64,000 bases of DNA, from NCBI GenBank assembly GCA_023379025.1, contig JAMCTH010000009.1:5092-69091 (forward strand). Reading direction: 5' to 3'. The DNA is from Patescibacteria group bacterium (GTDB lineage: Bacteria > Patescibacteriota > Microgenomatia > UBA10105 > UBA927). This document shows positions 2,843-62,369 of this stretch, in pieces; within the stretch, counting starts at the first letter, position 1, and every line of letters starts with the position of its first letter. A model generated the notes under the pieces. That model was not told the DNA's origin and searched no databases. It saw nothing but the letters and a program-made list of their open reading frames with translations. The position numbers were made by a program, and so were the translations under genes.

Positions 2843-3082
2843 ATGCCGATTACGAAACGCGCTATCAAAAAGCTCGCGCACGACAGAGGGCGCCAAAAAG
2901 CCCGAAGCCGCGAAAAAGATGACCTCATGGGCGCGGTCAAAAACGCGAGACGCACACCGTCACGCAAACATCTTTCCCGTGCCATGAAACTCCTGGATAA
3001 AGCGGCAAAACACCATATTATCCACGCAAACAAAGCCTCGCGTCTCAAGTCCCGCCTTTCAAAACTCGTCAAAACGAAATAA
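2843..3082 (+). CDS. rpsT: 30S ribosomal protein S20
   Basis: 79 aa, highly basic, AIKKLAHDRGRQKARSREK... with a helical Lys/Arg-rich profile like bS20. Confidence 0.75.
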   Translation: MPITKRAIKKLAHDRGRQKARSREKDDLMGAVKNARRTPSRKHLSRAMKLLDKAAKHHIIHANKASRLKSRLSKLVKTK

Positions 3083-3262
3083 CTGAAACCGGAGACACGT
3101 CTTTTCATGGAAGAAATTGAAGGAAATTGAAGAAAATTCCCGTTCATACTAGAATGGAAAGGGATTTTTATTTTCTGTTGATTTGGATTTGAACACTATA
3201 CCATGCATGTCGGACGTTGAGATTTGGGATTTGAGATTTGGGATTTTTTTATAGTTATCATG

Positions 3263-3814
3263 CCTGCCGGTCAGATCGAGATCAACCTTCTGGGTCATGA
3301 AGACCTTGCCCATACGCCTCAGGGGAGGCTGGTGCTGTGGGCGTTGACCTATGGCCGGTATATCATGATCGGTACGGAAATCGTGGTCCTGCTCGCGTTC
3401 ATCTCCCGCTTCAGTCTGGACCGGAAACTTACGGACCTCAAAGATGAAATCGACCAGAAACAGGCGATTCTGACGGCAAATAAACCCCTGGAAACCGAAA
3501 TTCAGGATGTCGACAGCCGCCTGACTGCCATAAAAAGCCTGACCGCGGGTCAGTCCGCCCCCGTCGACCTCCTGTCGCTTCTTGCCAGCATCCTCCCGAG
3601 CGATGTCCGGCTTAAATCCATCGATATCACGCAAAAAAAACTGAGTGCCAACGTGTTTGCCGGTACGACCCCGGGCTTTTCCCAATTCCTCGTGAACCTT
3701 CAGGCGCTGCAGGCAATCGGAAATATAGAAATCGGAGACATCTCACGGGATCCGGTCAGCGGCATCAGTTTCAGTTTTACCGCGGATATCCGGTCCCGGA
3801 ACCCGGGAACATAA
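3263..3814 (+). CDS. PilN-like type IV pilus/fimbrial assembly protein (start alternatively 3224)
   Basis: IEINLLGHE near the N-terminus resembles the PilN INLLP motif. Single TM followed by a coiled-coil and periplasmic domain. Followed by a PilO-like gene. Confidence 0.55.
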   Translation, partial: PAGQIEINLLGHEDLAHTPQGRLVLWALTYGRYIMIGTEIVVLLAFISRFSLDRKLTDLKDEIDQKQAILTANKPLETEIQDVDSRLTAIKSLTAGQSAPVDLLSLLASILPSDVRLKSIDITQKKLSANVFAGTTPGFSQFLVNLQALQAIGNIEIGDISRDPVSGISFSFTADIRSRNPGT

Positions 3815-3818
3815 TCCT

Positions 3819-4526
3819 ATGGCAGCGTTCGACTACAAAACCGAGTTCAAACGCTACCGCCGGTATTATCAGTCGCTCGGCGATTCCCTGAACAAGCCGG
3901 TCGCCAATGCCTATACATCGGCTATCTTTTCATTTCTCGTCGTATCGCTTTTTGGCTGGTACGCCATACGCCCGACGATCCAAACGATCCTCTTCCTCCG
4001 GCGCCAGATTGCGGACGACAAAAAAGTCAGCCAGCAAATGGAGGACAAAATTACACACCTTATTGAACTGCAGGCGTCGCTCCAGAACGTCAGGAGTGAC
4101 CTGCCGGTTCTGGACGAGGCGCTGCCGGAGAATCCGGATCCCATAGCTGTGGTTGCCGAGATCCGCAACCTCGCGGCAGTCACCGATGCGTCACTGTCGG
4201 CAGTGACGATTGCGGATACCGCACTCATCGGGGCCGATGCGCCGCTTCTTGAAGCAGCGCAGCCCCCGGACACACAGAAGACGGTGCCCCTTGTCCCCGG
4301 ACAAAATGTCGGGGTCATGCCGATTACCGTATCCGTTTCCGGTTCCTATGACATGCTAAAAGCATTTCTGAACGGCCTTCTCGCCATGCGCAGAATCGTG
4401 ACCATAGACTCCGCGGATATACTCCGGGAAACGGCCGCAGCCGGCGACATTTCTGCCAATGACAAACCGCTCAGACTTGTTCTAAAATTAAATACATATT
4501 ACCGTAGTCCTAGCTCTAGCCCATGA
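3819..4526 (+). CDS. PilO-like pilus assembly protein
   Basis: N-terminal TM, coiled-coil segment and C-terminal domain. Sits immediately after the PilN-like gene. Confidence 0.5.
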   Translation: MAAFDYKTEFKRYRRYYQSLGDSLNKPVANAYTSAIFSFLVVSLFGWYAIRPTIQTILFLRRQIADDKKVSQQMEDKITHLIELQASLQNVRSDLPVLDEALPENPDPIAVVAEIRNLAAVTDASLSAVTIADTALIGADAPLLEAAQPPDTQKTVPLVPGQNVGVMPITVSVSGSYDMLKAFLNGLLAMRRIVTIDSADILRETAAAGDISANDKPLRLVLKLNTYYRSPSSSP

Positions 4527-4717
4527 AAGCCGATCGGGATTTATTACTGGTTTCTGTATTTACCTTTTTTACGGTTTCGCTGTGGATTTTTTTTGAACTC
4601 GTGAAGACCACAAAAACATCTACCGTCGTTCCGACGGTCCAGAACGTTATTGCCCCGCTTCCCAAATCCCTGGATACCGCTGTACTCACATCGCTTGCTG
4701 CCAGAAAACACTATTAA
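4523..4717 (+). CDS. small membrane protein (64 aa), hypothetical
   Basis: 4-nt ATGA overlap with the upstream pilO-like stop suggests translational coupling. One TM helix. Confidence 0.35.
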   Translation: MKADRDLLLVSVFTFFTVSLWIFFELVKTTKTSTVVPTVQNVIAPLPKSLDTAVLTSLAARKHY

Positions 4718-4721
4718 CCAT

Positions 4722-6047
4722 ATGAAAAACGCACCACGCATCCCCACCATCGTAGGCCTCCTCCTTGTGTGTCTCATCGCGGGTATCTTTATTTTCGCGT
4801 TCAACCAGGTTACGGAGCTCAACTCCCGCGCGGCAGCATCGGAAACGCCATCGGCCATACAGGTTGCCAACATCGGAGACACCTCGTTCAGTATGACCTG
4901 GACGACGCCCGATGCGGCGACAGGACAGGTAGAACTTTCCCAACCCGGAACGGGCAACGCTACGTTTTTTGACGACCGCGATCTTGCAGCGGCAACGGGA
5001 AAGTCGGTTTCCCGTACTGCCATGGCGCGGTATGTGACGCATATCGTCACGATCCGGAGCCTGAATCCGAATACCACCTACTCCCTCCGGATCATTTCGA
5101 ACGGCAGAACATACGATGACAGCGGCGCCCCCTACTCCGTCCGCACCGGACCGATACTCTCGGAAGCGGATAACGGCCTTAAACCCGCATACGGCCAGGT
5201 AAACACGCAGGACAACACGCCGGCAACGGACGCGCTCGTCTTCGTCACGCTGGATGACGGATCACTGCTGGGAACTGCCGTCACATCAAACGGCACATGG
5301 CTCATCCCCCTCAATGTCAGCCGTACCAAATCCCTTGACCATTACGTTGCCGCGGGCGAACGCCTTCCCATTGCGATCCGCGTCGTCTCCGGGACACTGG
5401 AAACAACGGCGATGACCGACAGTTTGAACGCGTCACCGGTACCCCTCATGGTTCTCGGAAAAACCTATGACTTCCGGAAAATCCAGGCAAAAAATTCAGG
5501 CTCCCCGCTTGCCAACGCACCGGCCGGCGGGACAACGCCCGCAGTACTCGGTGCGGAAACGCAGACACCGACCGGTCAAAACTTTCACGTCTCTCTCACA
5601 TCACCGGCAGAAGGGGCAGCGCTCACCGGTACGACACCTCTGGTCGAGGGCACGGGATTCCCCGGAAACACCGTTTCGCTTGTGCTCGGTATCACTTCGC
5701 CCGTCAGCGGCAGCACAAAAGTCGGCACGGACGGAGTTTGGAGATTCACTCCGTCAACGGCGCTTGCCGAAGGAAGACAGAGCGTTACCATGACCACGGC
5801 AGATGCAGCCGGCAAACCCGTAGCTATCACACACATGTTTACGATACTCAAAAGCGGTTCCCAGGTATTGGGAGACGCGACGCCTTCCGCAACACTCGAA
5901 CCCGCGATCACCGCAACACCCACCGCGGAGCCGACAACTATTGCAGCACAGCCCATTCCGACGACCGGTACGGAACTGCCGACGATCATAATGATCGTTA
6001 TGGGTATCGGATTTCTGGCAAGCGGAGCTGTCGTATTTCTCAAATGA
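4722..6047 (+). CDS. cell-surface protein with N-terminal signal anchor, FN3/PAP-N-like beta-sandwich, and C-terminal IPTTG + TM + Lys tail (sortase-like sorting signal)
   Basis: The FSMTWTT...YSLRI pattern resembles a fibronectin-III/purple-acid-phosphatase N domain. The C-terminus is QPIPTTGTELPTIIMIVMGIGFLASGAVVFLK. The start at 4722 lies 4 nt after the previous gene. Confidence 0.6.
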   Translation: MKNAPRIPTIVGLLLVCLIAGIFIFAFNQVTELNSRAAASETPSAIQVANIGDTSFSMTWTTPDAATGQVELSQPGTGNATFFDDRDLAAATGKSVSRTAMARYVTHIVTIRSLNPNTTYSLRIISNGRTYDDSGAPYSVRTGPILSEADNGLKPAYGQVNTQDNTPATDALVFVTLDDGSLLGTAVTSNGTWLIPLNVSRTKSLDHYVAAGERLPIAIRVVSGTLETTAMTDSLNASPVPLMVLGKTYDFRKIQAKNSGSPLANAPAGGTTPAVLGAETQTPTGQNFHVSLTSPAEGAALTGTTPLVEGTGFPGNTVSLVLGITSPVSGSTKVGTDGVWRFTPSTALAEGRQSVTMTTADAAGKPVAITHMFTILKSGSQVLGDATPSATLEPAITATPTAEPTTIAAQPIPTTGTELPTIIMIVMGIGFLASGAVVFLK

Positions 6048-6160
6048 CCTATCATTCAAAGCTACGCTTTCAAAGAGCAAAGCGAAACTTTGAAAAAACG
6101 ACAGACAGGAAGCGACGACTTGACGCAGATCGAAGAAATAGTCTACTGTGATGATAGGGA

Positions 6161-8584
6161 TTGTTTTCTCGTCATACACATACCATGGCTGACATTCTTG
6201 ACGCTGCTCAGAAACAGGCGACGACCGGCAGTACTGCTCCGGGAGATACTGCCGCACCTCCTTCTCCCCAAAAGAACGAGCCTCCGATACCCAATCTGGA
6301 CGATGTGCTCCCCGGAGCATCCGATCCCGTAGTCGTTCCGGAACAGCCGGAGTCTCTCCAACAGACAGAACCCGGGGATACTGCCGCAAAGGATGCTTCC
6401 CCGATTTCTCCGCCATCGGTTCCTCCAGCGTCATCCGCACCCCTCCCGGAGAAGCAGAAGGACGCTACGCTCCCGGCAGATATGCATGAAAAGCCGGCAG
6501 AAATTTTATCCCCGTCGGAAACCCTTGAAGAACCGCCGCCGCTTACCCCTCCCCCCTCCATGAAAAAGAGGCACGGCCACAGGGGTGTTGTGGTTGCGGC
6601 GCTTCTTTTTCTCCTCCTGACCCTCCCGCTTGCCGTCTATTTCGTTGCGCAGCAACGGCAACTCGCGGAAATCAGAAGTAACGCTTCTGCCCAACCCGGA
6701 GTGTATCCGGGTACTACTCCCGGATCAAATACTATGGAACAACAGAGCTGTTATAACAACTGTTTATATAGCTCAAACGGCAGTCCGACGGGCAATACCC
6801 CGGTTGAGTGTGCATCCTATTGCGGGGGCTATAATACAAACTACGGCACGACCCCTACTCCGTCACCCGTAAGCTGCGCTCCAGGAGAAGTACCATCGAA
6901 ATGTCCAGGGTACAATTTTGATGTATGCCTTAATCAATTTTCCGGCGAATGCCCAGCGCCACCGACCTCTAACTGCCAGCAATGTTTGCAATCAGGCAAT
7001 ACCCCTATTGAATGTGCAAGGTATTGTAATATTGTAGTCAATACACCTCCTCCGCCAACACCCCCGTCCTGCGGATTAGGTGAGACACGCTCAGATTGTC
7101 CTGGATATCCTATGGGCGTCTGTTTGAATAGTTTTTTCGGAGTATGCCCCCAACCTCCCGGTACAACAACAGCAACCACTCCCCCGCCATCTACAAGTTG
7201 TCAGGAGGGACAAATCCAGTGTAATGATACGGGGGGAGTTAACTATTGTTCAAGCGGAAGATGGTGGTCCCGTCCTGCAAATATCGGAGTTGAGTGTCCG
7301 GCAAGCGTAAAAAACTGTGGATTAGGTGAGGTACCTGCAAAATGTCCCGGATATAAGTACGATGTCTGTGTGAATCAATTTTCAGGGGATTGTCCACCTG
7401 CTCCAAAACCGACATGGGTTCCCGGGACTGCGGAGTGTACATCATACTGCGGTCAAGCAGGAAACGATGCATCTCAATGCAATGTTCTCTGTAACCCGAC
7501 AAAACCGCAATACAACTGGAAGCCTGGTGATCCGAACTGCATGCAGGAATGTGTAGCATCCGGAAACGGTGCAAGTGAGTGTCAGAAATATCTCTGCGAT
7601 CCGGCGCATACCACACCAACACCGGCATTTATCCGTGGGACGGCAAACTGCCAACAGCAATGTGTTGCTGCAGGCAATGGGTCGGGAGAATGCACAAGTC
7701 TTTGTGGACCTTTGCCCGTTGGATATATTCAAAATGGCAATCCGTGCGACAATAGCACTCAATGTTCGTCGGGCCTTTGTGAAGGAACGAAAGGAGTCTG
7801 TTGGCCGGTACCTACGATAATGCCGGATACCTGTACCGGACCAAAACCGACGTGCAGCGCCGGCACGGAACCGACCTGCGTTCTCAATTACTGGCACTGC
7901 GCCGTGACATTCGTCACTCCCACTCCTCCTCCGCAGGGTGTAGTACCGCAGGTAAGCCAGAATGGCTGCACCGTAACAAATAACACCGATCAGTCGGTCC
8001 GGGTCTGTGCCTTCAGCGGTGGGTGCGAAGGGGACTTCAGCGGCCGCTGCGGACCAAGCTGGAACCAGATAAACAACGAACAGGGCGGAGCAAAATGCAT
8101 AAACCTTACGGCTCACGGGAATACGAATCTTTGCCAGCCCGCAACGGTCCAGTGCGGTTCCTGGCAGACGGATATATCTATCGCAAATAATCCGGATGGC
8201 ACGGCTGCCGTTGCCGGTATAAACACAAGCGGATGCACCAGCACTCCGCCAGGCGGAGGAAATCCTCCGGGTACCACTCCCCCCGGAGGTAACCCGCCAG
8301 GCACGACCCCGCCGACCGGCGGAGGTCCGCAGTGCACGAATATCAAAATCTATAAAGACGGAGCACAGGTGACTCCCTCAACCCTCCGGCCCGGAGACAA
8401 TATCCTGATAGCCGTAGCCGGAACCGGCGCGACAAAAGCACATATCCGTGTCAACGGCGCAGATTGGATAGAAACGACAACGACCAACAGCAACAACGAA
8501 TTTACGGTGCCGTTCACGATCCCGTCGGGCGTCACGAACTTTACGATAGAAGCGGAAATTTATGTTAGCGGCGTCTGGCAATAA
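6161..8584 (+). CDS. large secreted/membrane-anchored cysteine-rich repeat protein (Pro-rich N-terminal region, TM, 3x CxxGExxxxCPGYxxDVCxNxFxGxCP repeats, 5x CxxxC...GN...EC...C repeats, C-terminal Ig/CBM-like beta domain)
   Basis: Internal repeats are visible in the translation and at DNA level (7070-7152 versus 7316-7398). Cys content is very high. A Gly/Pro/Thr linker precedes the last ~100 aa. Confidence 0.7.
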   Translation: MFSRHTHTMADILDAAQKQATTGSTAPGDTAAPPSPQKNEPPIPNLDDVLPGASDPVVVPEQPESLQQTEPGDTAAKDASPISPPSVPPASSAPLPEKQKDATLPADMHEKPAEILSPSETLEEPPPLTPPPSMKKRHGHRGVVVAALLFLLLTLPLAVYFVAQQRQLAEIRSNASAQPGVYPGTTPGSNTMEQQSCYNNCLYSSNGSPTGNTPVECASYCGGYNTNYGTTPTPSPVSCAPGEVPSKCPGYNFDVCLNQFSGECPAPPTSNCQQCLQSGNTPIECARYCNIVVNTPPPPTPPSCGLGETRSDCPGYPMGVCLNSFFGVCPQPPGTTTATTPPPSTSCQEGQIQCNDTGGVNYCSSGRWWSRPANIGVECPASVKNCGLGEVPAKCPGYKYDVCVNQFSGDCPPAPKPTWVPGTAECTSYCGQAGNDASQCNVLCNPTKPQYNWKPGDPNCMQECVASGNGASECQKYLCDPAHTTPTPAFIRGTANCQQQCVAAGNGSGECTSLCGPLPVGYIQNGNPCDNSTQCSSGLCEGTKGVCWPVPTIMPDTCTGPKPTCSAGTEPTCVLNYWHCAVTFVTPTPPPQGVVPQVSQNGCTVTNNTDQSVRVCAFSGGCEGDFSGRCGPSWNQINNEQGGAKCINLTAHGNTNLCQPATVQCGSWQTDISIANNPDGTAAVAGINTSGCTSTPPGGGNPPGTTPPGGNPPGTTPPTGGGPQCTNIKIYKDGAQVTPSTLRPGDNILIAVAGTGATKAHIRVNGADWIETTTTNSNNEFTVPFTIPSGVTNFTIEAEIYVSGVWQ

Positions 8585-8589
8585 CTCAT

Positions 8590-9093
8590 ATGAAATTCCT
8601 TAAAAAATACTGGCAACTCATGATCGTGACTTTCGTAACGATCGGCCTCGGTGTTGCCGCGTTCTTAACCTCACAGCAGCTCAACAAGCCGACTCCTGTT
8701 GCACCCAACGTGCCGCAGCAGAAGCCAAAAGCCGCGGAGCCTGCCTGTACGCTCGCATTTGCCATCACGACCACGGGAACTCCTACCGAAACACCAACGG
8801 ATACTCCGACACCGACTCCTAATCCGACCGCGACTCCGGTACCGACGGCAACGCCGACACCGACTCCTAATCCGACCGCGACTCCGGTACCGACGGCAAC
8901 GCCGACACCCGGAAGCGGCACCTATAGCACTCCCACTCCGACACCCGGAGGAGTACTCACTTCCGCCGGATCATCACCGACACCCACACCCCCGACCCCC
9001 GAAATCCCCGTATCCGGAACCGGACCGGGTATCCTGGGAGCTGCGGCAATCGGCGGCGGACTCCTTCTTCTCCTTGCAGGTCTTGCCCTCTGA
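8590..9093 (+). CDS. Thr/Pro-rich repeat surface protein with N-terminal TM and C-terminal IPVSG + hydrophobic tail
   Basis: 167 aa. TPTPNPTATPVPTATP is duplicated exactly. The C-terminus is EIPVSGTGPGILGAAAIGGGLLLLLAGLAL. Confidence 0.55.
   Translation: MKFLKKYWQLMIVTFVTIGLGVAAFLTSQQLNKPTPVAPNVPQQKPKAAEPACTLAFAITTTGTPTETPTDTPTPTPNPTATPVPTATPTPTPNPTATPVPTATPTPGSGTYSTPTPTPGGVLTSAGSSPTPTPPTPEIPVSGTGPGILGAAAIGGGLLLLLAGLAL
8809..8904. repeat. perfect 2 x 48 bp direct tandem repeat (acaccgactcctaatccgaccgcgactccggtaccgacggcaacgccg) inside the TP-rich gene
   Basis: Seen directly: 8809-8856 is identical to 8857-8904. In-frame (16 codons each). Confidence 0.9.
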
Positions 9094-35899: not shown

Positions 35900-36850
35900 T
35901 TAAATGCCGTAAAAAATCTTGTCAAGAGGGATATTTACCTTTCTGAGACGCCTCGCGAATTCTTTCTTCACGATCTCCCGCGTATCTCTGGGATGGAACC
36001 GGATGAGCGTCGGGGTCGTGACTTCCTGTGTTTTCCGCTTCCTCATATAGCACAACTGCAGGTACATTGCCGGATATTCGAATACTCTCAGTACCCGGGT
36101 TCCGATCGCCGCGTAGCAGAGTCCGGGAAGAGACAGGAGTTCCGATACCATTCCCTGCCGCCGCCGGAAACGGCTGTCTTTTTCCTCTCCGGAAGCACCC
36201 GCCATCCGTTCCGCCCAGGCGGTCGGCAAGTAGGTCCCGGCCCATGCATTTGCCCGTAAAAACCGGAGATACGCGTCTTCTTTCGCGACAACGGGCCGCA
36301 TCTGCAGGACTTCGTGGGCGCTGAAAAAGTCCCGTTCTCCCGGCGGAACAGCCGGTGCGTGTTCATCCATAAACATATTGAGGCAGACGGTGTCTTTCAC
36401 CTGATCCGACCCCGGTCTTCTTCTCAGATGCAGCAGTTCCGCCGCAAGCGTTATGAAAAGACGGGATATCCACAGCGTCTTCGGGGAAACGATGCACATA
36501 AAATCGATATCCTCATCTTCCGGCGCGTTATTCATGGAGAGTCCGCCGGTGACGCCGACCAGGCGCACAGTGGGAAGAAAACCCAATACCCGCGCCGCAT
36601 GCCGCGCAATGAGCCATTTGCCCGCTGCGGCATGCTCGCGGTCCAGGCGAAGGCTGACGGTCCGGCTCCTTCCCCGCAGAAAATAATACGTCCTGCCGCG
36701 TACGGTCTTTGAACCGATAAGCCTGCTGCGCGTATCCGGTGCTGCCCCGGCATACCCCCATACCAGAAGTTCCTGCTTCGTCATCGGATATGCAAAGATA
36801 TCGGCATACGCAAGCGTTACATACGTCAGGCTACCGTCATATCCCTTCAT
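35900..36850 (-). CDS. nucleotidyltransferase-fold (Pol-beta-like) protein, hypothetical
   Basis: LVGVTGGLSMNNAPEDEDIDF matches the hG[GS]x9-13[DE]h[DE]h NTase motif. Start taken at internal Met (MKGYDG), 4 nt downstream of the upstream stop. Confidence 0.4.
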   Translation of the reverse strand: MKGYDGSLTYVTLAYADIFAYPMTKQELLVWGYAGAAPDTRSRLIGSKTVRGRTYYFLRGRSRTVSLRLDREHAAAGKWLIARHAARVLGFLPTVRLVGVTGGLSMNNAPEDEDIDFMCIVSPKTLWISRLFITLAAELLHLRRRPGSDQVKDTVCLNMFMDEHAPAVPPGERDFFSAHEVLQMRPVVAKEDAYLRFLRANAWAGTYLPTAWAERMAGASGEEKDSRFRRRQGMVSELLSLPGLCYAAIGTRVLRVFEYPAMYLQLCYMRKRKTQEVTTPTLIRFHPRDTREIVKKEFARRLRKVNIPLDKIFYGI

Positions 36851-36854
36851 GGGT

Positions 36855-38435
36855 TTATTGCGGGGGAGGAGCAGTCGCGGAAACAAGGCCGTATTTGGCC
36901 AAAACCTGTTGAAAGCCTGCTGCGGCGGTCTGCAGTACCGCGGTGGGTGCCGACCCCTGGGACAGTCCGTTGACCGCATCACCCAGATATTTTATAAGCT
37001 GGTCATTGATGCCGTCGTCAAACGTCCGCGATGCCAACGGGAACGATTTGGCGGTCTGGGCCTGGGAAATATATGCCCCCACCAGCGGATCGGACAGCAG
37101 TGATCTTCCGAGGTCTACGCGTGCATACGGCTCTCCGAACAGGCGTTCCTGCGACTCCTGCGTATAGAGTTTCGTTTCCACGTCGGCGGAGGTCAGGTAC
37201 TGGAGAAATTGCCATGCCGCGTCCGGGTTTTTGCTTTTTGCGGATACTCCTTCCGCCCAATAGGAAGCCCACGTCACGGTATTGCCCGGAAGCTGGGGGA
37301 TGGGAACGATCTTGAAATGCAGGTTGGGATTGATCTGTTTTATGTCAAATGCCCTCCAGGAAGGCGCCATGATCATAGCTACCTTTCCCGTTGCGAATGC
37401 GTAGATGGAATTATCCAGCGTGTCATTCCATGTATAGACCGGATCCGCCGGATCGGAAAACTTATGGTAGAAGATGAGTGTTTCTTCGGCTTCCTTGCCC
37501 GTAGGCTGGGCGAGGCTTGCCCCGTTCTGCATCATCATGGTTGCCAGAATATCGCTGTAGTTTTCAATGTTGCCCGTCGTACCGAGCGCAATAGCGGAGG
37601 TCGTTATGGTTGAGCCGTCTTTAACCGTCAGTTTTGGAACAACATTGAGGACATCCTCCCACGTCTGGGGAGGAGATACGCCGGCTGCGGAAAACAGGTC
37701 TTCGTTATAATAGAGCCCTAATCCGTCTATTTCCATGGGTATGCCGTAGATAGCCGAACCGGCCACCAAATCGGCGCTCGCCACCTTGTAATAGGTAGAA
37801 GCAAAGGCGGCGGGCGTTATGACGGTTGCCGGCACCTTGGCCAGTTCCGTCCGGAGCATCGCCACCCACGTGTTGTGGAACCGGAACACATCCGGTCCGT
37901 CCCCCCGGTCGATTGCCGCCTGGAGCCGCTGCCGGTACTGCTGGGGAGACTGCCGGGTATAGATAACATGTATGTGAGGATTTTTTGCCTCAAAATCCCG
38001 GAGAACGGACTCAAGCACCGGACTGTCTTCCCATAATCCCCAATACGAAATCGTCACGAGCTTCGGCCGGGACACGGCACCGAGCATAAACTTCGCCCCG
38101 ACCGCCACGCCGCCGATAAGAACCAGAAAAACCAGGATCATGAGGATGCGCTTGGGCAGTGAACTCCCGCCTCCGGACGCTACAGGCACCGGCGGGGTTT
38201 CAGCCGCAACACCCTGGGGGATAAACGGGTTCTCCGGTACCCCTGACGGTGCCGTACTCCCCCCTTGAGGCGGAGGGGAAGATGTGCCGGCGCCCCCTGC
38301 AGGGATGACGACCGTCTCCTGAATCGGAGGACCGGATGCTTCGGCAGTTTTGGATTGATCCAGTACCACGCCGCCTTCCTGAAACGGAGCCTGGAATGGG
38401 GACGATGGCGGAGGCGGAGTATCGTTCGGATCCAT
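36855..38435 (-). CDS. extracellular solute-binding protein (ABC transporter SBP family 1, sugar-type) with Pro-rich N-terminal extension and TM anchor
   Basis: After the TM: TISYWGLWED...AAIDRGDGPDVFRFHNTW...GIPMEIDGLGLYYN typical of sugar SBPs. Start chosen at MDPND to avoid overlap with the divergent VanW gene; it could be 38498. Confidence 0.65.
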   Translation of the reverse strand: MDPNDTPPPPSSPFQAPFQEGGVVLDQSKTAEASGPPIQETVVIPAGGAGTSSPPPQGGSTAPSGVPENPFIPQGVAAETPPVPVASGGGSSLPKRILMILVFLVLIGGVAVGAKFMLGAVSRPKLVTISYWGLWEDSPVLESVLRDFEAKNPHIHVIYTRQSPQQYRQRLQAAIDRGDGPDVFRFHNTWVAMLRTELAKVPATVITPAAFASTYYKVASADLVAGSAIYGIPMEIDGLGLYYNEDLFSAAGVSPPQTWEDVLNVVPKLTVKDGSTITTSAIALGTTGNIENYSDILATMMMQNGASLAQPTGKEAEETLIFYHKFSDPADPVYTWNDTLDNSIYAFATGKVAMIMAPSWRAFDIKQINPNLHFKIVPIPQLPGNTVTWASYWAEGVSAKSKNPDAAWQFLQYLTSADVETKLYTQESQERLFGEPYARVDLGRSLLSDPLVGAYISQAQTAKSFPLASRTFDDGINDQLIKYLGDAVNGLSQGSAPTAVLQTAAAGFQQVLAKYGLVSATAPPPQ

Positions 38436-44059: not shown

Positions 44060-45088
44060 CTATTGCGTGGATGCGCCTCCTGTTGAAGCAGTTGCTTCCG
44101 GAGGCTGCGGCGTAAGAGGTCGCGGCAGGGCAGTCGCCGGTGCCGCCGGAGGGAACGATACGGTCTTCACAATTTCATCAAACAGAGCATCATCCGCCGT
44201 CCAGTCGGCATTGACTCCGGAAGGAGTAAAATGGTTAATCTCAAGCGTCAATCCATCCCGGCCCGGTATCATGATCCCGCGCATCTGGGCAAATGCATAG
44301 CCTCCGCCTGTCGTCCCGGTAAACAAGCCTGAAAACTCAAGCGCAGGACCTGCAGACCCGGTCGCAACCGTTGCAGGTTGCATGGTAAATGCGCGTCCTC
44401 CGGAATCCGTAAGTATTGCGCCCGCAGAAACGGCGGGCAAAAGCTCTCCGGATCCCCGTGCGGCAACGGTAAACCGCGTCCCTCCGGGCAGATACGTCCC
44501 CTCCGAAGCGCAATTGGCGCCGTCGCATATGGGTGGAGCGACGTCCGGCGGCAGAAGAAACGTGAGACCCGTTATGGGCAGCCGGGTCGCTCCGCTCACG
44601 ACGGAGTAGGACTTCCAGTTGCTGTGGGGGTTCATCTTCGCCGCCGCTCCTGATTGTGATGCCGTACTCCCGGCCGCAGATGACTGTCGTGGTTGCTCCG
44701 AAGGAGCGGAACCCGGCATAGAGCGCCGGACGACCGTACTGAGCCACACCCCTCCGGCAAAAAGAAGAACAAGGATAAGAACCGTCAGAACCTTTTTGCC
44801 GAAAGACGCGGGGGAGATGCCGCTCTTTCCCGGTGATACCGGCGGCGGCAGAGGTGATTCTTCGGGCTGCGGATCGCTTGGCGCAGGAGAGCTATTTCCC
44901 AAAGATAACGGCGCAGATGCCTCAGGCGGCGATGAAGCGCTTTCCGGAGAGGGATCAGCAATAGGCTCTATAATCGGCGTTTCTTCGTACTCAAGCGTGG
45001 TCTTCGGATCGGAAGAAGTCTGATCCGGCGCGCCGGCCTCCTCCCGTGCATGCTGAGGTATATCATCCATATCATGATATTGTTTCAT
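44060..45088 (-). CDS. membrane-anchored Pro/Ser-rich protein with C-terminal globular domain, hypothetical
   Basis: Acidic Pro-rich N-terminus, one TM (VLTVLILVLLFAGGVWL), about 200 aa extracytoplasmic domain. 4-nt overlap with the PP2C gene stop. Confidence 0.5.
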   Translation of the reverse strand: MKQYHDMDDIPQHAREEAGAPDQTSSDPKTTLEYEETPIIEPIADPSPESASSPPEASAPLSLGNSSPAPSDPQPEESPLPPPVSPGKSGISPASFGKKVLTVLILVLLFAGGVWLSTVVRRSMPGSAPSEQPRQSSAAGSTASQSGAAAKMNPHSNWKSYSVVSGATRLPITGLTFLLPPDVAPPICDGANCASEGTYLPGGTRFTVAARGSGELLPAVSAGAILTDSGGRAFTMQPATVATGSAGPALEFSGLFTGTTGGGYAFAQMRGIMIPGRDGLTLEINHFTPSGVNADWTADDALFDEIVKTVSFPPAAPATALPRPLTPQPPEATASTGGASTQ

Positions 45089-51923: not shown

Positions 51924-52541
51924 CTACTGCAATATCGCAGTCTCATCCACGGCGGACCCTCCATTCCCTGATCCTCCCTGAGGTGCGCCGGTGAAGGCGA
52001 AGCTTCCGGTTACGACATCGGAAATGCCGCTCCAGTATGCGCTTCCTGACGCTTCAACCGTATAGACTATGCCCTGATCCGGGAATCCGGTAATGATGAG
52101 GTCTGAGCCCGCGGTGCGGATTTTCTTTGCCGGCTTGCCGCCGAGATTCGCGTCCGTGATCACACCATCTGTGAACCGCTTATCGGTTTTCATCCAGGTG
52201 CCCAAGTTGGTTGCCGTGGTATCCCGGACCCATACGATGAGATTTCCGGGATGCTCCGGGTCGGTGAACTCGAAATGGGCGTAATTCACGTTATCTTCCG
52301 GATGTGTATTGAGTGTCAGGTTTTCCGGATAGGAAAATTGCATGCGGTTGTTGTTGTCGGTCAGTGTCTTGAGAGGAACCGGCGTCGGCGTCGGGGAAAC
52401 GGACGACACTGCCTGCTCAGATTCTGCCAGAGGATTGATAATCCTCCCCGGCCTCTTGACGCCGGTGGAGTACCATGCCGCAATACCACCCGCGGCTACC
52501 CCTACCACGACCGCACTGATGACAAGTGGATGGATGCGCAT
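51924..52541 (-). CDS. secreted/anchored hypothetical protein
   Basis: Start at the internal Met giving signal/TM (MRIHPLVISAVVVGVAAGGIAAWY). Thr/Pro linker then beta-rich domain. Confidence 0.45.
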   Translation of the reverse strand: MRIHPLVISAVVVGVAAGGIAAWYSTGVKRPGRIINPLAESEQAVSSVSPTPTPVPLKTLTDNNNRMQFSYPENLTLNTHPEDNVNYAHFEFTDPEHPGNLIVWVRDTTATNLGTWMKTDKRFTDGVITDANLGGKPAKKIRTAGSDLIITGFPDQGIVYTVEASGSAYWSGISDVVTGSFAFTGAPQGGSGNGGSAVDETAILQ

Positions 52542-52579
52542 AGTTTCCCGTAGTATACCATCCGCACGGCCCTGATATA

Positions 52580-53017
52580 ATGAAGGGAATGAGTATCTCC
52601 CGCCGCTTTGCATCACTGGTACTCTGTTGTTGTTTCTTTCTGGTAATCCCCCTGCTTTCCCGCCCGGCACTGGCAGCCAAAAAACGGGTATGGCGCAGTA
52701 ACTCCGGCGGCGGAGAGACGTACTCAACCGGCAAACTCTCCCGACCAACGAACAGCGTCATCATTACGTTTCTCCACCTCGAAACCGTGGATTCCGCAAC
52801 GTATACACTCGAGTACAAAACGAACAAAACGACACAGGGGATCGTCGGAACGGTTACGCCGGCGGGACAGGATACGGAGTCCCGTGATCTCTACTTCGGA
52901 ACCTGCAGCCATGGAGTCTGTACGCCGCATGACAATATCTCCGCCGCCACGCTTACCGTGGAAACGCGGCTGAAAACCGGAGTGACCAACACAAAACGCT
53001 ACTATATCAGAATCTAA
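52580..53017 (+). CDS. small secreted protein with signal peptide, hypothetical
   Basis: MKGMSISRRFASLVLCCCFFLVIPLLSRPALA signal-like N-terminus; 145 aa. Confidence 0.45.
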   Translation: MKGMSISRRFASLVLCCCFFLVIPLLSRPALAAKKRVWRSNSGGGETYSTGKLSRPTNSVIITFLHLETVDSATYTLEYKTNKTTQGIVGTVTPAGQDTESRDLYFGTCSHGVCTPHDNISAATLTVETRLKTGVTNTKRYYIRI

Positions 53018-58602: not shown

Positions 58603-60453
58603 ATGACACATCCATCGGTTGTTCGTCCGGGAAGCGGTATCCGCGGCCTTGGAACAAGTTTTGATGAAAACGGGGTGTTTCTTTATCTCGACACACAACA
58701 AGAACAAAACGCCATCCTTCTCTCCTACGCGGCAAACGGCATGGATTTCCGGCCGGTCTCCGATAACGTGCACATCACCGGTAACGACGGACAACCCGTA
58801 TCAGCCGCATTTCTTGAAGAATTCCGGATCGCATGCCTGAAAAAAAACGACTCCCTCCTCTCATACCGGGATAAACGGGAAAACGGCGTTTTCCTAGCCC
58901 GTTCGCGCGACCGAATCAACTGGAGAACGTTTACCCGGGTGCCCTACGCTGATACTCCTTTCCTCCTTGTGCCGCAATCAGGACTCCGACGCGGACACAT
59001 CGCCTACGCCGGCAACACCGTCATCCATGCTCTCCGGTCCGGCAGTCTCAGGAGCTGGGAACGGGGTCTGCAGATCATCCCGCCAAGCGGATCCGTCCCG
59101 GACCCGCATACTACATACCGGGCCGGCATGACTATGCCAACGGATGATGGTATTGCATTTTTTTACTTCAGCGGCCATGACGGAAAAGACGGGATCCGTT
59201 GGGCGGTCAGGGTAGTCTATGCGGACAAGTACGATCCGGAAAATCTGGTCTGGCGCTCAGGCAATGCCGTCTGGGAGGAAACGGACGAGTGGATACAAAG
59301 AAATATGGCGCCGGTAGGGGTAGCACGTTCGGAAGGACGTCTGGTAAGTTACTGGAATGTACCGGGTGCCGGCATCCATGCAATCACCCATACACCGGTT
59401 ACTCATATATCTGACGAACGCCGTCACATGAGTCCCAATATACTCCGCCGCGTCCTCGAGAACCCGATACTCAAACCGTTAGCCCGGCACCGGTGGGCAT
59501 CGCGGGCCACCTTCAACCCGACCGCGGTCTTTGACCGGGGGACGATTCACCTTATCTACCGCGCCATCGGCGATCAGGATATCTCCGTTTTGGGCTATGC
59601 CACTACCCGGGACGGCACACATATAGATGAACGTCTGGATGAGCCGATATACATTCCGCAGGAGCCCTTTGAGCTCACGCGGTCCGACGCCCCCTGCCCG
59701 GGCCTGTATGCGTCGGGCGGAGGGTACGGCGGCTGCGAAGATCCGAGGATCACAAAAATCGGGGACCGGTTCTATCTCACCTATGTGGCGTATAACGGTG
59801 CAGATCCGCCGCGGGTTGCTTTTACCTCAATCGATGCGACGGACTTCAGGAACCGGCGGTGGCGCTGGGAAAAAGCCGTCCTTATTTCCCGGCCGGGAGT
59901 TGTCGATAAAAATGCGGTGCTGTTTCCGGAAAAAATCAATGATTCCTATGTATTTCTCCACCGGATATTTCCGGATATGCTCCTTGATTATGTCCCGTCG
60001 CTTTCGTTTGACGGAACCGTGTGGCTCAGAGATGCCGACCGAATCCGGCCAAGAATATTTTCCTGGGATTCAAGAAAAATCGGTGCCGGACCTCCCCCTA
60101 TCAAAACGCCGTACGGATGGCTCCTTATCTATCATGCGGTCGGCGACCACGATCCCTCCCGGTACAAAATCGGGGCCATGCTCCTTTCGCTCGATGATCC
60201 TTCACGGGTACTATGCCGTTCCCGCATGCCCATCCTTGCGCCGGACCTGCCGTATGAAAACGAAGGGCATAAAGCGGGTGTCGTCTATCCGTGCGGCGCT
60301 GTCGTGCACGGCAATGATCTCATCATCTACTACGGCGGCGCGGATACCGTCATCTGTGCGGCAAAAACACCGCTTAGATCGTTTCTTGAAAACCTGAAAG
60401 AGGAAGGGTCTCTCGAACAGAACGCAGTCCGTATGCAATCCTACCGCTTATGA
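58603..60453 (+). CDS. two-domain protein: N-terminal beta-rich domain of unknown function + C-terminal GH130-family (PF04041/DUF377) glycosidase/phosphorylase-like domain
   Basis: C-terminal half: ENPILKP...FNPTAV...IHLIYRA...GCEDPRITKIGDRFYLTYVAYNG...DKNAVLFPEKI...KIGAGPPPIKTPYGWLLIYHAVG...VVYPCGAVVHGNDLIIYYGGADT. Confidence 0.65.
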   Translation: MTHPSVVRPGSGIRGLGTSFDENGVFLYLDTQQEQNAILLSYAANGMDFRPVSDNVHITGNDGQPVSAAFLEEFRIACLKKNDSLLSYRDKRENGVFLARSRDRINWRTFTRVPYADTPFLLVPQSGLRRGHIAYAGNTVIHALRSGSLRSWERGLQIIPPSGSVPDPHTTYRAGMTMPTDDGIAFFYFSGHDGKDGIRWAVRVVYADKYDPENLVWRSGNAVWEETDEWIQRNMAPVGVARSEGRLVSYWNVPGAGIHAITHTPVTHISDERRHMSPNILRRVLENPILKPLARHRWASRATFNPTAVFDRGTIHLIYRAIGDQDISVLGYATTRDGTHIDERLDEPIYIPQEPFELTRSDAPCPGLYASGGGYGGCEDPRITKIGDRFYLTYVAYNGADPPRVAFTSIDATDFRNRRWRWEKAVLISRPGVVDKNAVLFPEKINDSYVFLHRIFPDMLLDYVPSLSFDGTVWLRDADRIRPRIFSWDSRKIGAGPPPIKTPYGWLLIYHAVGDHDPSRYKIGAMLLSLDDPSRVLCRSRMPILAPDLPYENEGHKAGVVYPCGAVVHGNDLIIYYGGADTVICAAKTPLRSFLENLKEEGSLEQNAVRMQSYRL

Positions 60454-62369
60454 TTACCGTCAACCGCTGCCGCGATAACCCTATTCTGTCCCCGATGAGC
60501 GCTCATCCGTGGGAAGCCAAAGCCGCATTTAACGGCTGCGTTATAAAATCGGATGACATCTACCGGATGGTATACCGTGCACTCTCATCTCCCCAGACTA
60601 TTGCCGGGAGTGAACTTCCGCTTTCTACCGTGGGGTACACAGACGGTCCGGATGGCATTCATTTCGAAAATCGAAGACAACTCATCACTCCGGAATTTGA
60701 ATGGGAGCGATACGGCTGTGAAGATCCGAGAGTAACAAAAATAGCTGATACATACCATATATTTTATACCGCTCTTTCTGCGTTTCCCTTTAGTCCGAAT
60801 GGCATCAGAATCGGGGTCGCGCTCACCCAAGATTTCCATACCATTATTGCTAAGCATCCGGTCACACCCTTTAACGCAAAGGCTATGGCGCTCTTTCCCG
60901 AAAAAATTCATGGTAACTATACCGCCATCCTGACGGTTGATACTGACCTGCCTCCGGCGAAAATATGCATCGCGTCTGCCAAAAGCTTATCGGACTTCTG
61001 GGATGCAACATATTGGGACAGATGGCACGAAGAACTGGACACCCACACGCTCCCGCTGTTGCGCTCTACCAGAGACCATCTGGAAGTGGGAGCGCCCCCC
61101 ATTAAAACATCGGAAGGATGGCTTATCATCTACTGTTACATACGCCACTATCAAAGCTCGGCACGGACGTTCGGTATTGAAGCTGTCCTTTTGGATACTG
61201 AGAACCCCATGAAAATTATCGGGAGGACCTCGACTCCCGTGATGGTTCCGCAAAAATCCTATGAACTCCAGGGCAATGTACCAAACGTTATTTTCCCAAC
61301 AGGAGCGCTCCTTAATGCTGACGGTCATACGCTTGCTGTTTATTACGGCGCTACTGATACAACCTGTTGTCGGGCCACAGTGCCGTTGGGAGAGCTTATG
61401 ACCGAACTTACACTGCATTCCGATATGCCGGTCAAAACCGGAATATATAACGTGCTGAAATTTGAACGGTCGCGGGAAAATCCGATTATTTCTCCGGTTG
61501 CCGCACATCCGTGGGAGTCAAAAACAACATTAAATCCTGCAGCAGTCTACAAACAGGGTGCAGTGCACATCCTCTATCGCGCCCAAGGGGCCGATGACCG
61601 ATCGGTTCTTGGTTATGCGACGGCAACAGACGGCATCCATATAGACACACGCTTACCGGAACCCGTGTACAGACCCCGGAATTCATTTGAAGCGATGGGT
61701 TGTGAAGACCCGAGACTCATGTTTCTCGAAAACAGACTGTATATGTGCTATACCGCCTATGATGCAAAAAATCCGACCCGTGTTGCTCTCACTTCCATTT
61801 CGGAAGAGGATTTCCTGAGTAGAAACTGGGTCTGGGACCGGCCGATACTTATCTCACCACCCGGTACGGATGACAAAAACGCGTGTCTCTTTCCGGAAAA
61901 GATAAACGGCAGGTATGTTTTTCTCCACCGGATTGCCCCCTGTATCTGGATCGATTTTATGGACAGTCTGAGATTCGGAAAAGGCATATGGCTCAAAGGA
62001 ACAATTCTTATGGATCCGAGAACCGATTGGTGGGACAGCGAAAAAATCGGTATCGCGTCTCCCCCGATCAAAACTCCCGACGGCTGGCTCCTCCTCTACC
62101 ACGGGCTTTCTAAAATTGACAGAAAATACCGTATCGGAGCCGCACTTCTCCATAAGGAACATCCTGATCACGTGATCGGCAGACTCCGGGAGCCGATCCT
62201 CGAACCGCAGGCCAAATATGAGACGCGCGGGCTCCGGCCCGGTACGGTCTTTGGATGCGGCGCCGTCGTCATAAACGGCATCATCTTCTTCTATTACGGG
62301 GGTGCGGATCAGTGTGTTGCCGTTGCGACGATAAATCTGAAACACCTCGTCACCGCCCTCAAATCCTGA
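60450..62369 (+). CDS. tandem double GH130-family (PF04041) domain protein
   Basis: Two complete copies of the same motif set (DNPILSP...CEDPRVTKIADTYHIFYTA...APPIKTSEGWLIIY... and ENPIISP...CEDPRLMFLENRLYMCYTAY...ASPPIKTPDGWLLLYHG...YYGGADQ). 4-nt overlap with the upstream gene. Confidence 0.7.
   Translation: MITVNRCRDNPILSPMSAHPWEAKAAFNGCVIKSDDIYRMVYRALSSPQTIAGSELPLSTVGYTDGPDGIHFENRRQLITPEFEWERYGCEDPRVTKIADTYHIFYTALSAFPFSPNGIRIGVALTQDFHTIIAKHPVTPFNAKAMALFPEKIHGNYTAILTVDTDLPPAKICIASAKSLSDFWDATYWDRWHEELDTHTLPLLRSTRDHLEVGAPPIKTSEGWLIIYCYIRHYQSSARTFGIEAVLLDTENPMKIIGRTSTPVMVPQKSYELQGNVPNVIFPTGALLNADGHTLAVYYGATDTTCCRATVPLGELMTELTLHSDMPVKTGIYNVLKFERSRENPIISPVAAHPWESKTTLNPAAVYKQGAVHILYRAQGADDRSVLGYATATDGIHIDTRLPEPVYRPRNSFEAMGCEDPRLMFLENRLYMCYTAYDAKNPTRVALTSISEEDFLSRNWVWDRPILISPPGTDDKNACLFPEKINGRYVFLHRIAPCIWIDFMDSLRFGKGIWLKGTILMDPRTDWWDSEKIGIASPPIKTPDGWLLLYHGLSKIDRKYRIGAALLHKEHPDHVIGRLREPILEPQAKYETRGLRPGTVFGCGAVVINGIIFFYYGGADQCVAVATINLKHLVTALKS

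Follow-up and report, generated by a model that had tools for sequence, protein, structure and literature searches.

Six co-oriented genes, g1 to g6, occupy positions 3260 to 9093 on the + strand of a 64,000-nucleotide (nt) stretch of DNA from a Patescibacteria group bacterium (contig JAMCTH010000009.1, positions 5,092 to 69,091; the whole 64-kb stretch is referred to as the window). According to the interpretation that we prefer, and to which we give an even chance, g1 to g4 encode PilN and PilO as components of an ordinary monoderm type IVa pilus (T4aP) machine, together with two lineage-specific envelope partners, and g5 and g6 form a separate cassette. This departs from an earlier reading made from the same letters (the original prediction), in which the PilN- and PilO-like genes and the genes behind them made up a single surface appendage or adhesin module. 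That reading spoke of five genes after the PilN/PilO pair; we counted four, which is also the number that it listed. The features of the locus are as follows.

2843 to 3082, + strand: rpsT, upstream of the six-gene cluster, with a 177-nt spacer before g1
3083 to 3259, + strand: rpsT-pilN intergenic region, with a promoter-like site at 3127 to 3155 and tandem repeats at 3110 to 3138 and 3217 to 3246
3260 to 3814, + strand: g1, PilN-like bitopic membrane protein of 184 amino acids (aa) (Pfam PilN; ortholog profile against PDB)
3819 to 4526, + strand: g2, PilO-like bitopic membrane protein, 235 aa (Pfam PilO; ortholog profile against PDB)
4523 to 4717, + strand: g3, single-pass membrane protein, 64 aa (transmembrane [TM] prediction; position after pilO)
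4722 to 6047, + strand: g4, putative envelope stalk with FN3, beta, and Ig domains, 441 aa (Pfam; AlphaFold2 [AF2] model)
6048 to 6184, + strand: g4-g5 spacer of 137 nt, a possible internal promoter region
6185 to 8584, + strand: g5, Cys-rich type II membrane protein, 799 aa (conservation profile; AF2 model of the C-terminal domain)
8590 to 9093, + strand: g6, Thr/Pro-rich protein, 167 aa (conserved N- and C-terminal ends; tandem repeat)

In the window, g1 and g2 are separated by 4 nt, g3 and g4 by 4 nt, and g5 and g6 by 5 nt, and g2 and g3 overlap by 4 nt, with the start of g3 overlapping the pilO stop (ATGA). The predicted gaps or overlaps of 4 to 5 nt are thus present at these four junctions, but not between g4 and g5, where 137 nt precede ATG 6185 (or 113 nt an alternative TTG start that would give 807 aa).

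Identification of PilN and PilO

Judged from their sequences, g1 is PilN and g2 is PilO, a genuine pair that is placed outside a canonical pilus locus. The original assignment of both genes was borne out, since each scored above its Pfam cutoff and the ortholog profiles matched solved PilN and PilO. For g1, the earlier gene call itself stood and only its start was moved, from 3263 to ATG 3260. The protein matched Pfam PilN (PF05137) with 23.6 bits (gathering cutoff, 22.8 bits; E = 5.3e-5), and a profile of 44 g1 orthologs retrieved PilN of Myxococcus xanthus (3jc8) as the top PDB sequence (E = 6.5e-4). From the N terminus, g1 consists of an EINLL motif, a TM segment (aa 35 to 53), a coiled-coil stretch, and the PilN domain. 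EINLLG is found at aa 7 to 12, within a short cytoplasmic N terminus that is followed by one TM helix, as PilN requires. In the profile alignment, ISINLLG of the ortholog profile was aligned to IRINLLP of M. xanthus PilN, and across the 44 orthologs (family peptide, [IV]NLL) L10 was invariant and N9 was at least 90% conserved. The N terminus of PilN binds PilM in characterized T4aP systems (PMC6916266), and g1 keeps, as far as the alignment tells, the conserved N-terminal INLL motif that is the PilM-binding peptide of known systems. Because this motif is kept, PilN and PilO most likely serve a normal type IV pilus (T4P) machine encoded elsewhere. The idea of a surface module instead of a canonical T4P locus is therefore upheld in part: the genes do lie outside a canonical locus, but a non-T4P role is disfavored by the INLL motif.

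g2, which starts 4 nt downstream of g1, matched Pfam PilO (PF04350) with 34.8 bits (cutoff, 22 bits; E = 2.1e-8) as well as T2SSM_b (E = 1e-4). When a profile of 31 g2 orthologs was searched against PDB, PilO entries ranked on top (3jc8, E = 1.6e-10; 2rjz, E = 2.9e-4; 5uvr, E = 3.7e-4), the best matches being PilO of M. xanthus and of Pseudomonas aeruginosa. The protein is bitopic, and its single hydrophobic segment, YTSAIFSFLVVSLFGWYAI, is invariant across the family. A match to NCBIfam GspM (24.9 bits) remained under the cutoff of that family. An identity as GspL/GspM of a type II secretion system (T2SS) was rejected, since GspM was far under its cutoff, PilO fitted better, and the organism has no outer membrane. 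In the public annotation, g1 is a "hypothetical protein" (MCL4360262.1), g2 a "type 4a pilus biogenesis protein PilO" (MCL4360263.1), g3 "hypothetical", and g4 an "Ig-like domain-containing protein".

In its adjacent bitopic PilN and PilO, in this order, and in its INLL peptide, the pair resembles the monoderm PilM-PilN-PilO loci of Streptococcus sanguinis, Clostridium, and Saccharibacteria, and no secretin or PilP is found at the locus, as expected for a single membrane. Unlike in those systems, pilM, pilB, pilC, pilD, and the pilin genes are not adjacent and pilN follows rpsT; moreover, PilO has 235 aa and not the enlarged Firmicute form, and g3 and g4 are joined to pilO in every relative. 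Monoderm PilO proteins carry a large extra domain, for which Pelicic speculates a role in crossing or anchoring to peptidoglycan, an open question (PMC6916266). Since PilO is of ordinary size here and joined to g3 and g4, the latter may supply a wall-crossing function as separate proteins.

The search for the rest of the machine within the window was negative. Neither a prepilin motif nor a GspE-type Walker A motif was present in any frame of the 64 kb, and no PilM or T2SS Pfam match was obtained among its unassigned open reading frames (ORFs), whose Pfam matches were to hydrolases, a PEGA/SH3 protein, a solute-binding protein, VanW, and a LUD domain. The motif scan and the Pfam search thus agree with the predicted absence of PilM, ATPase, and pilin genes. 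Upstream of pilN lies rpsT and not pilM, and PilM was absent from both the window and the 20-kb loci of relatives. No complete T4aP cluster was found at the locus, the neighbors in relatives being housekeeping or envelope genes. T4P genes, including those for PilM, PilB, and PilC, are widespread in bacteria of the candidate phyla radiation (CPR) (PMC6744442; PMC11623550), and for the single T4P locus of one complete Microgenomates genome, PilM is listed and PilN/PilO are not (PMC7143001). The genes for PilM, PilB, PilC, PilT, PilD, and the pilins of the organism studied here would lie at other places in its genome.

A fixed g1-g4 core and an optional g5-g6 cassette

Across relatives, g1 to g4 are a fixed core, and g5-g6 are an optional, recombining cassette. 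Loci for comparison were obtained by scanning GTDB, with each species represented by one genome, for the PilO profile, which yielded 63 loci (set 1), and by a g4-profile scan of JGI metagenomes, which yielded 80 further loci (set 2), about 140 in total. Homologs of the locus were all from Gottesmanbacteria-type CPR within Microgenomates, in line with the reduced, possibly episymbiotic genome of the original prediction. Many of the GTDB species-representative metagenome-assembled genomes behind loci L007 to L069 carry the title "uncultured Gammaproteobacteria bacterium", which evidently stems from their submission and does not reflect taxonomy.

The order g1-g2-g3-g4 was present in 63 of 63 genome loci, and g1-g2-g3 lay directly upstream of g4 in 56 of 56 metagenome loci with enough sequence; thus neither search direction turned up g3 and g4 without pilN and pilO. 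Median gaps were 3, 3, and 4 nt within g1-g4, 1 nt between g5 and g6, and 82 nt between g4 and g5 (spacer in 42 loci). The tight spacing or overlap (1 to 4 nt) at the g2/g3 and g3/g4 junctions was kept in ∼120 loci despite 40 to 55% protein divergence. Median identity to the proteins of the window was 55% for g1, 43% for g2, 56% for g3, and 45% for g4, compared with 47% for LCP (LytR-CpsA-Psr), 55% for S20, 63% for MurJ, and 72% for UvrD. Since their divergence is thus on par with that of neighboring envelope genes, the sequences of g1 to g4 point to purifying selection. g5 and g6 could be aligned only at their conserved ends, amounting to 11% and 35% of the query, respectively.

When the slot between g4 and LCP was surveyed in 89 loci, the following contents were counted.

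g5 g6: 55 of 89 loci
duplicated (g5 g6 g5 g6, or g5 g5 g6): 7 of 89
g6 only: 3 of 89
g5 only: 1 of 89
inverted pair: 1 of 89 (L066; L069, seen separately, is inverted too)
empty (gap of 170 nt or less): 18 of 89, about 20%
other content: 4 of 89, including the fusions in L058, L062, and L052

The three fusions (L058, 13267 to 15168; L062, 12060 to 13841; L052, 9119 to 10222) combine a g5-type N terminus and TM segment, a Cys-rich region, and a g6-type PVSG C-terminal anchor, and such chimeric g5/g6 genes argue for recombination within the cassette. Near-identical tandem copies of g5-g6, or of g5 alone, were present in L011, L036, L054, and L015, with the C-terminal 40 aa identical between copies, and a distant homolog of the g5 C-terminal domain was found in the same locus again. 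In the inverted loci at least, the cassette, which lies on the opposite strand there, must have a promoter of its own. Conservation of the six-gene arrangement in relatives, a check named with the original prediction, therefore holds for g1-g4 but not for g5-g6, which were absent, duplicated, fused, or inverted. Likewise, what the prediction had named as evidence against itself, separate transcription and loss of linkage in relatives, would apply to g5-g6 and not to g3-g4, as judged from the gene order.

These results bear directly on the view that all six genes are one dedicated non-T4P appendage or adhesin module, in which a PilN/PilO-like scaffold would anchor g4 to g6 for host attachment. 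Such a module would fit the common orientation of the genes, the lack of PilM, ATPase, and pilin in 64 kb, the anchoring signals that mark g4, g5, and g6 as envelope or surface proteins, and the restriction of g5-g6 to this locus among detectable homologs; in addition, non-T4P pili that consist of Ig-like subunits and employ membrane-anchored helpers are known from CPR bacteria (bioRxiv 10.64898/2026.03.03.709456). We nevertheless regard it as quite improbable, since g5-g6 are missing from ∼20% of the loci, inverted in two, duplicated or fused elsewhere, and set off by a spacer, and since PilN keeps a PilM-binding motif, which points to a normal T4P role.

The envelope proteins g3 and g4

g3 corresponds to the small membrane ORF of the original prediction. 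It has one TM segment (aa 9 to 27) with the conserved core LLVSVFTFFTV.LWIFFELVKT, directly follows pilO in all loci, and matched no Pfam or NCBIfam family; its orthologs likewise gave no significant match. g4, correctly described before as FN3-like, matched the Pfam families fn3, Pur_ac_phosph_N, and Big_13, and 303 orthologs were retrieved in a protein search. It comprises an N-terminal TM/signal anchor, an FN3 domain (aa 44 to 141), a second beta domain (aa 156 to 250), a linker, and an Ig-like Big_13 domain (aa 291 to 375), followed in the C-terminal part by an invariant motif, a linker, IPTTG, and a C-terminal TM segment. The AF2 model (mean predicted local distance difference test [pLDDT] score, 82.9) consists of three beta-sandwiches between N- and C-terminal helices, with disordered linkers.

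The invariant motif, LKSGTQVLG[DE]ATPSAT, is encoded at 5847 to 5894 (aa 376 to 391) and falls into a region that is disordered in the AF2 model. Its core (K, G, QVLG, and TPS) was invariant in 72 orthologs, and its other positions were at least 90% conserved. The motif may be a docking or processing site. At the C-terminal end, a P-[LIVM]-P-x-[ST]-G consensus was present in 45 of 59 g4 orthologs, about half of which had K or R within their final two residues.

Architecture of the g5 and g6 proteins

ATG 6185 is the better start of g5, because orthologs begin with MADIL and an independent gene caller chose the same position. The Cys-rich nature of the protein was predicted correctly (53 Cys), but its length is 799 and not 807 aa. 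Only a 254-aa C-terminal fragment is annotated at NCBI (MCL4360266.1, starting with MPDTCTG...), and the ORF is intact over 799 aa. A conserved N-terminal peptide, MADILDAAQKQ (family form, MADILDAAQKQI.DAA), is followed by a Pro-rich cytoplasmic linker, a TM segment (aa 135 to 153), a Cys-rich ectodomain, a PT/G linker, and the C-terminal domain. The ectodomain is hypervariable and contains two kinds of diverged internal repeat (60 to 81% DNA identity). In the AF2 model built from 6 sequences, pLDDT was ∼30 outside the C-terminal domain; the latter (85 aa, conserved) was modeled as a 7-strand beta-sandwich with pLDDT above 90. Its fold was weakly similar to CBM56 and beta-GRP (E = 0.016 to 0.04), and the label of a carbohydrate-binding module was not adopted, as there was no structure match at E ≤ 1e-3. 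Its family was gathered with a 92-aa domain query (in a search with whole g5, which returned 5 matches, low-complexity words had dominated) and comprised 378 representatives; in every match listed, the domain formed the extreme C terminus, mostly of proteins of ∼200 to 680 aa. Elsewhere in the window, the ORF at 44060 to 45088 (- strand) has a Pro-rich N-terminal region and then a TM segment, like the N-terminal half of g5.

g6 begins with a conserved signal/anchor and PVAPNVPQ..PKA..PACTL.F and ends with IPVSG.GP and a TM segment (family form, [VI]PV[AS]G.GP plus a hydrophobic segment). The Thr/Pro repeats ascribed to it by the original prediction were evident from a perfect 48-nt tandem repeat of 2.2 copies at 8806 to 8909, encoding PTPTPNPTATPVPTAT, which appears to reflect a very recent gain or loss of repeat units in the Thr/Pro linker. 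The center of g6 in the window consists of Thr/Pro repeats only, and orthologs usually have one or two extra Cys-rich modules. Neither g5 nor g6, orthologs included, gave a significant match to a Pfam or NCBIfam family. The expectation that the proteins downstream of pilO reside at the surface or in the envelope agrees with their anchoring signals and TM segments and with the beta-stalk of g4. As a hypervariable surface cassette, g5-g6 may act as adhesins, decoys, or wall components, and the CPR-enriched MdbA/VKOR systems may be the oxidants of their many cysteines.

The conserved C-terminal sandwich of g5 and the conserved N-terminal strand that follows the signal peptide of g6 always travel as a pair, as would be expected of a Pam-type or sortase-type pilus in which g4 to g6 are polymerized by donor-strand exchange or by a sortase, for instance by insertion of the g6 ACTLTF strand into the g5 sandwich. 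Pam pili (PamA/B pilins, PamC/D chaperones, and PamR terminator; bioRxiv 10.64898/2026.03.03.709456), whose pilins are Ig-like and whose FnIII-type terminators are anchored at the C terminus, occur in Microgenomatia, and they share with the present proteins the character of CPR Ig/FnIII envelope proteins with signal peptides, C-terminal TM anchors, and paired cysteines. We consider such a pilus highly improbable. The C-terminal domain of g5 was modeled as a complete 7-strand sandwich, and no PapD-like chaperone or two-domain pilin architecture was seen. Pam pilins, compared here by description only, have a 9-strand N-terminal domain, a linker strand, and a truncated Ig C-terminal domain, and their chaperones have a C-terminal TM helix, whereas g4 is made of complete FN3, beta, and Ig domains. 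Furthermore, pam operons lie beside ATP synthase genes and have no described PilN/PilO, unlike the present locus with its neighbors MurJ, rpsT, LCP, and tpiA. Unlike for sortase-assembled Gram-positive pili, no sortase, of class C or otherwise, was found in the cluster in any of ∼140 loci with gene calls or motif scans.

Sorting signals and spacers

g4 resembles LPXTG/sortase-anchored Gram-positive FN3/Ig proteins in its N-terminal signal/anchor, its tandem beta-sandwiches, and its [LIVM]Px[ST]G sequence followed by a hydrophobic segment. A Cohesin/Big_13 surface protein is encoded beside a GH39 glycosidase just upstream of the window (L001, 3833 to 4939; relative L005, 4875 to 5918). It ends like g4 and g6, with IPVTG in the same genome and LPTSG in L005. 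Since it also ends g6 and this unrelated protein, [LIVM]Px[ST]G plus TM segment resembles a sorting signal in general use across the lineage. The shared endings suggest that the LPXTG-like signal is lineage-wide; it may be processed by a sortase. Sortase has been reported as near-ubiquitous in Microgenomates (PMC6744442).

The rpsT-pilN spacer contains two short tandem repeats, GAAATTGAAG in 2.6 copies (3110 to 3138) and TTGAGATTTGGGAT in 2.1 copies (3217 to 3246), the second of which stops 14 nt short of the start of pilN. Upstream of g1, promoter-like matches of at least 10 of 12 positions were present in 25% of loci versus 3% of shuffles. In the g4-g5 spacer, the enrichment was modest (12% versus 2% of shuffles). 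This spacer is AT-rich (38% GC) and, as a feature, is conserved across relatives; the 137-nt copy in the window contains no terminator-like site.

Gene order in the neighborhood

The cluster is flanked upstream by MurJ on the - strand and downstream by LCP, tpiA, a UvrD helicase, and two FemAB genes. The window is rich in envelope genes, namely those for MurJ, LCP, two FemAB proteins, MraY/WecA-like and UbiA-like proteins, two PBP1-type proteins, VanW, and a PEGA+SH3 protein. It also contains two UvrD/PcrA-type helicases, two tandem GH130-like genes (58603 to 62369), and four sizeable ORFs without a Pfam family (35900 to 36982, - strand; 44060 to 45088, - strand; 21124 to 21831, + strand; 51924 to 52748, - strand). 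No tRNA gene was found in the 64-kb window, and no Rfam family was found in the g1-g6 region or in the whole window.

This setting lends itself to the explanation that the genes are adjacent without a shared function, PilN and PilO being T4P parts and g3 to g6 unrelated wall or surface proteins in a collinear region that is full of envelope genes (MurJ, LCP, FemAB, and penicillin-binding proteins). We hold this to be unlikely, although well worth considering, and several results weigh against the functional link that we prefer. The whole 20-kb neighborhood (MurJ, rpsT, ..., LCP, tpiA, uvrD, femAB) was collinear in every relative, and no relative outside the clade was found, since the GTDB PilO scan, the g4 protein search, and the JGI g4 scan all returned Gottesmanbacteria-type, collinear loci. 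Because the entire neighborhood is collinear within one clade, conserved order is weak independent evidence that g1 to g4 are functionally linked. The g4 folds are generic: Foldseek returned only FN3/Ig strings (contactins, fibronectin, SiiE, and ice-binding adhesin extenders) and no T4P component. The unrelated Cohesin/Big_13 protein bears the same C-terminal sorting signal. The Pfam score of g1 barely clears the PilN threshold, and promoter- and terminator-like counts in the window were at chance level. Anchoring by a sortase likewise met with difficulties, in which the locus differs from classical LPXTG proteins: g4 scored 13.9 bits against TIGR01167 (LPXTG_anchor), below the cutoff of 15.9; g6 lacked the basic tail of classical sortase signals in 37 of 39 orthologs; and no sortase gene was found nearby, the TLxTC motif being absent from real ORFs in a six-frame scan of the 64 kb. 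Sortase Pfam families were also absent among the neighboring genes of relatives. Finally, these genomes may not produce T4P, or may have a further PilN/PilO pair.

What sets g1 to g4 apart from mere collinearity is their tight or overlapping spacing, kept in ∼120 loci at g2/g3 and g3/g4, as opposed to the loose and variable g4-g5 junction. In addition, none of the loci found had g3 and g4 away from pilN and pilO.

A proposed role in the pilus machine

According to the interpretation that we prefer, an ordinary T4aP machine with two envelope partners beside a separate cassette, g1 to g4 (3260 to 6047) would be a tightly packed and probably translationally coupled operon. The cytoplasmic INLL peptide of PilN would dock PilM, and PilN and PilO would make up the ring at the external side of the membrane. 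This ring may be tied to the cell wall by g3 and g4, or these may help the fiber through, with the LPXTG-like signal attaching the g4 stalk to wall or membrane. In diderms, this task falls to PilP and secretin-associated proteins; for Firmicutes, the large additional C-terminal part of PilO has been suggested to perform it. g5-g6 (6185 to 9093), dispensable for the g1-g4 unit, would be an autonomously evolving cassette of disulfide-rich, wall- or membrane-anchored proteins under diversifying pressure.

A more specific proposal casts g3 and g4 as the cell wall adaptor of the CPR T4P, which would dock on the PilN/PilO ring, perhaps via LKSGTQVLG[DE]ATPSAT, and guide or anchor the fiber through peptidoglycan and S-layer, with g5-g6 supplying exchangeable, disulfide-rich surface proteins (adhesins, for example) at the same exit site. 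We regard this as possible but rather doubtful. g3 and g4 would then be the monoderm counterpart of PilP and the secretin accessories. To the diderm accessories PilP, TsaP, GspB, and GspC they are alike only in their position after pilO and in the role proposed, PilP also being based on a beta-sandwich; on the other hand, g3 and g4 matched PilP, GspC, or TsaP neither in sequence nor in fold, g4 carries an LPXTG-like anchor, and there is no outer membrane.

For the annotation of this DNA, it is new that g1 is named PilN and that g5 is corrected from a truncated public entry; g2 was already named PilO at NCBI. New as well is a detached, putative pilNO operon that has partners specific to its clade and a variable surface cassette as its neighbor. 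If the linkage reflects inherited gene order only, the finding would reduce to an ordinary refinement of annotation. How T4P cross or are anchored at the monoderm wall is an acknowledged open question (PMC6916266), for which g1 to g4 are a concrete candidate link that is present in many genomes. The slot occupied by the cassette is a hot spot of surface variation, which could reflect pressure from hosts or phages. Pili of CPR bacteria are thought to be central to host attachment and DNA uptake, and the predicted role in host attachment is possible.

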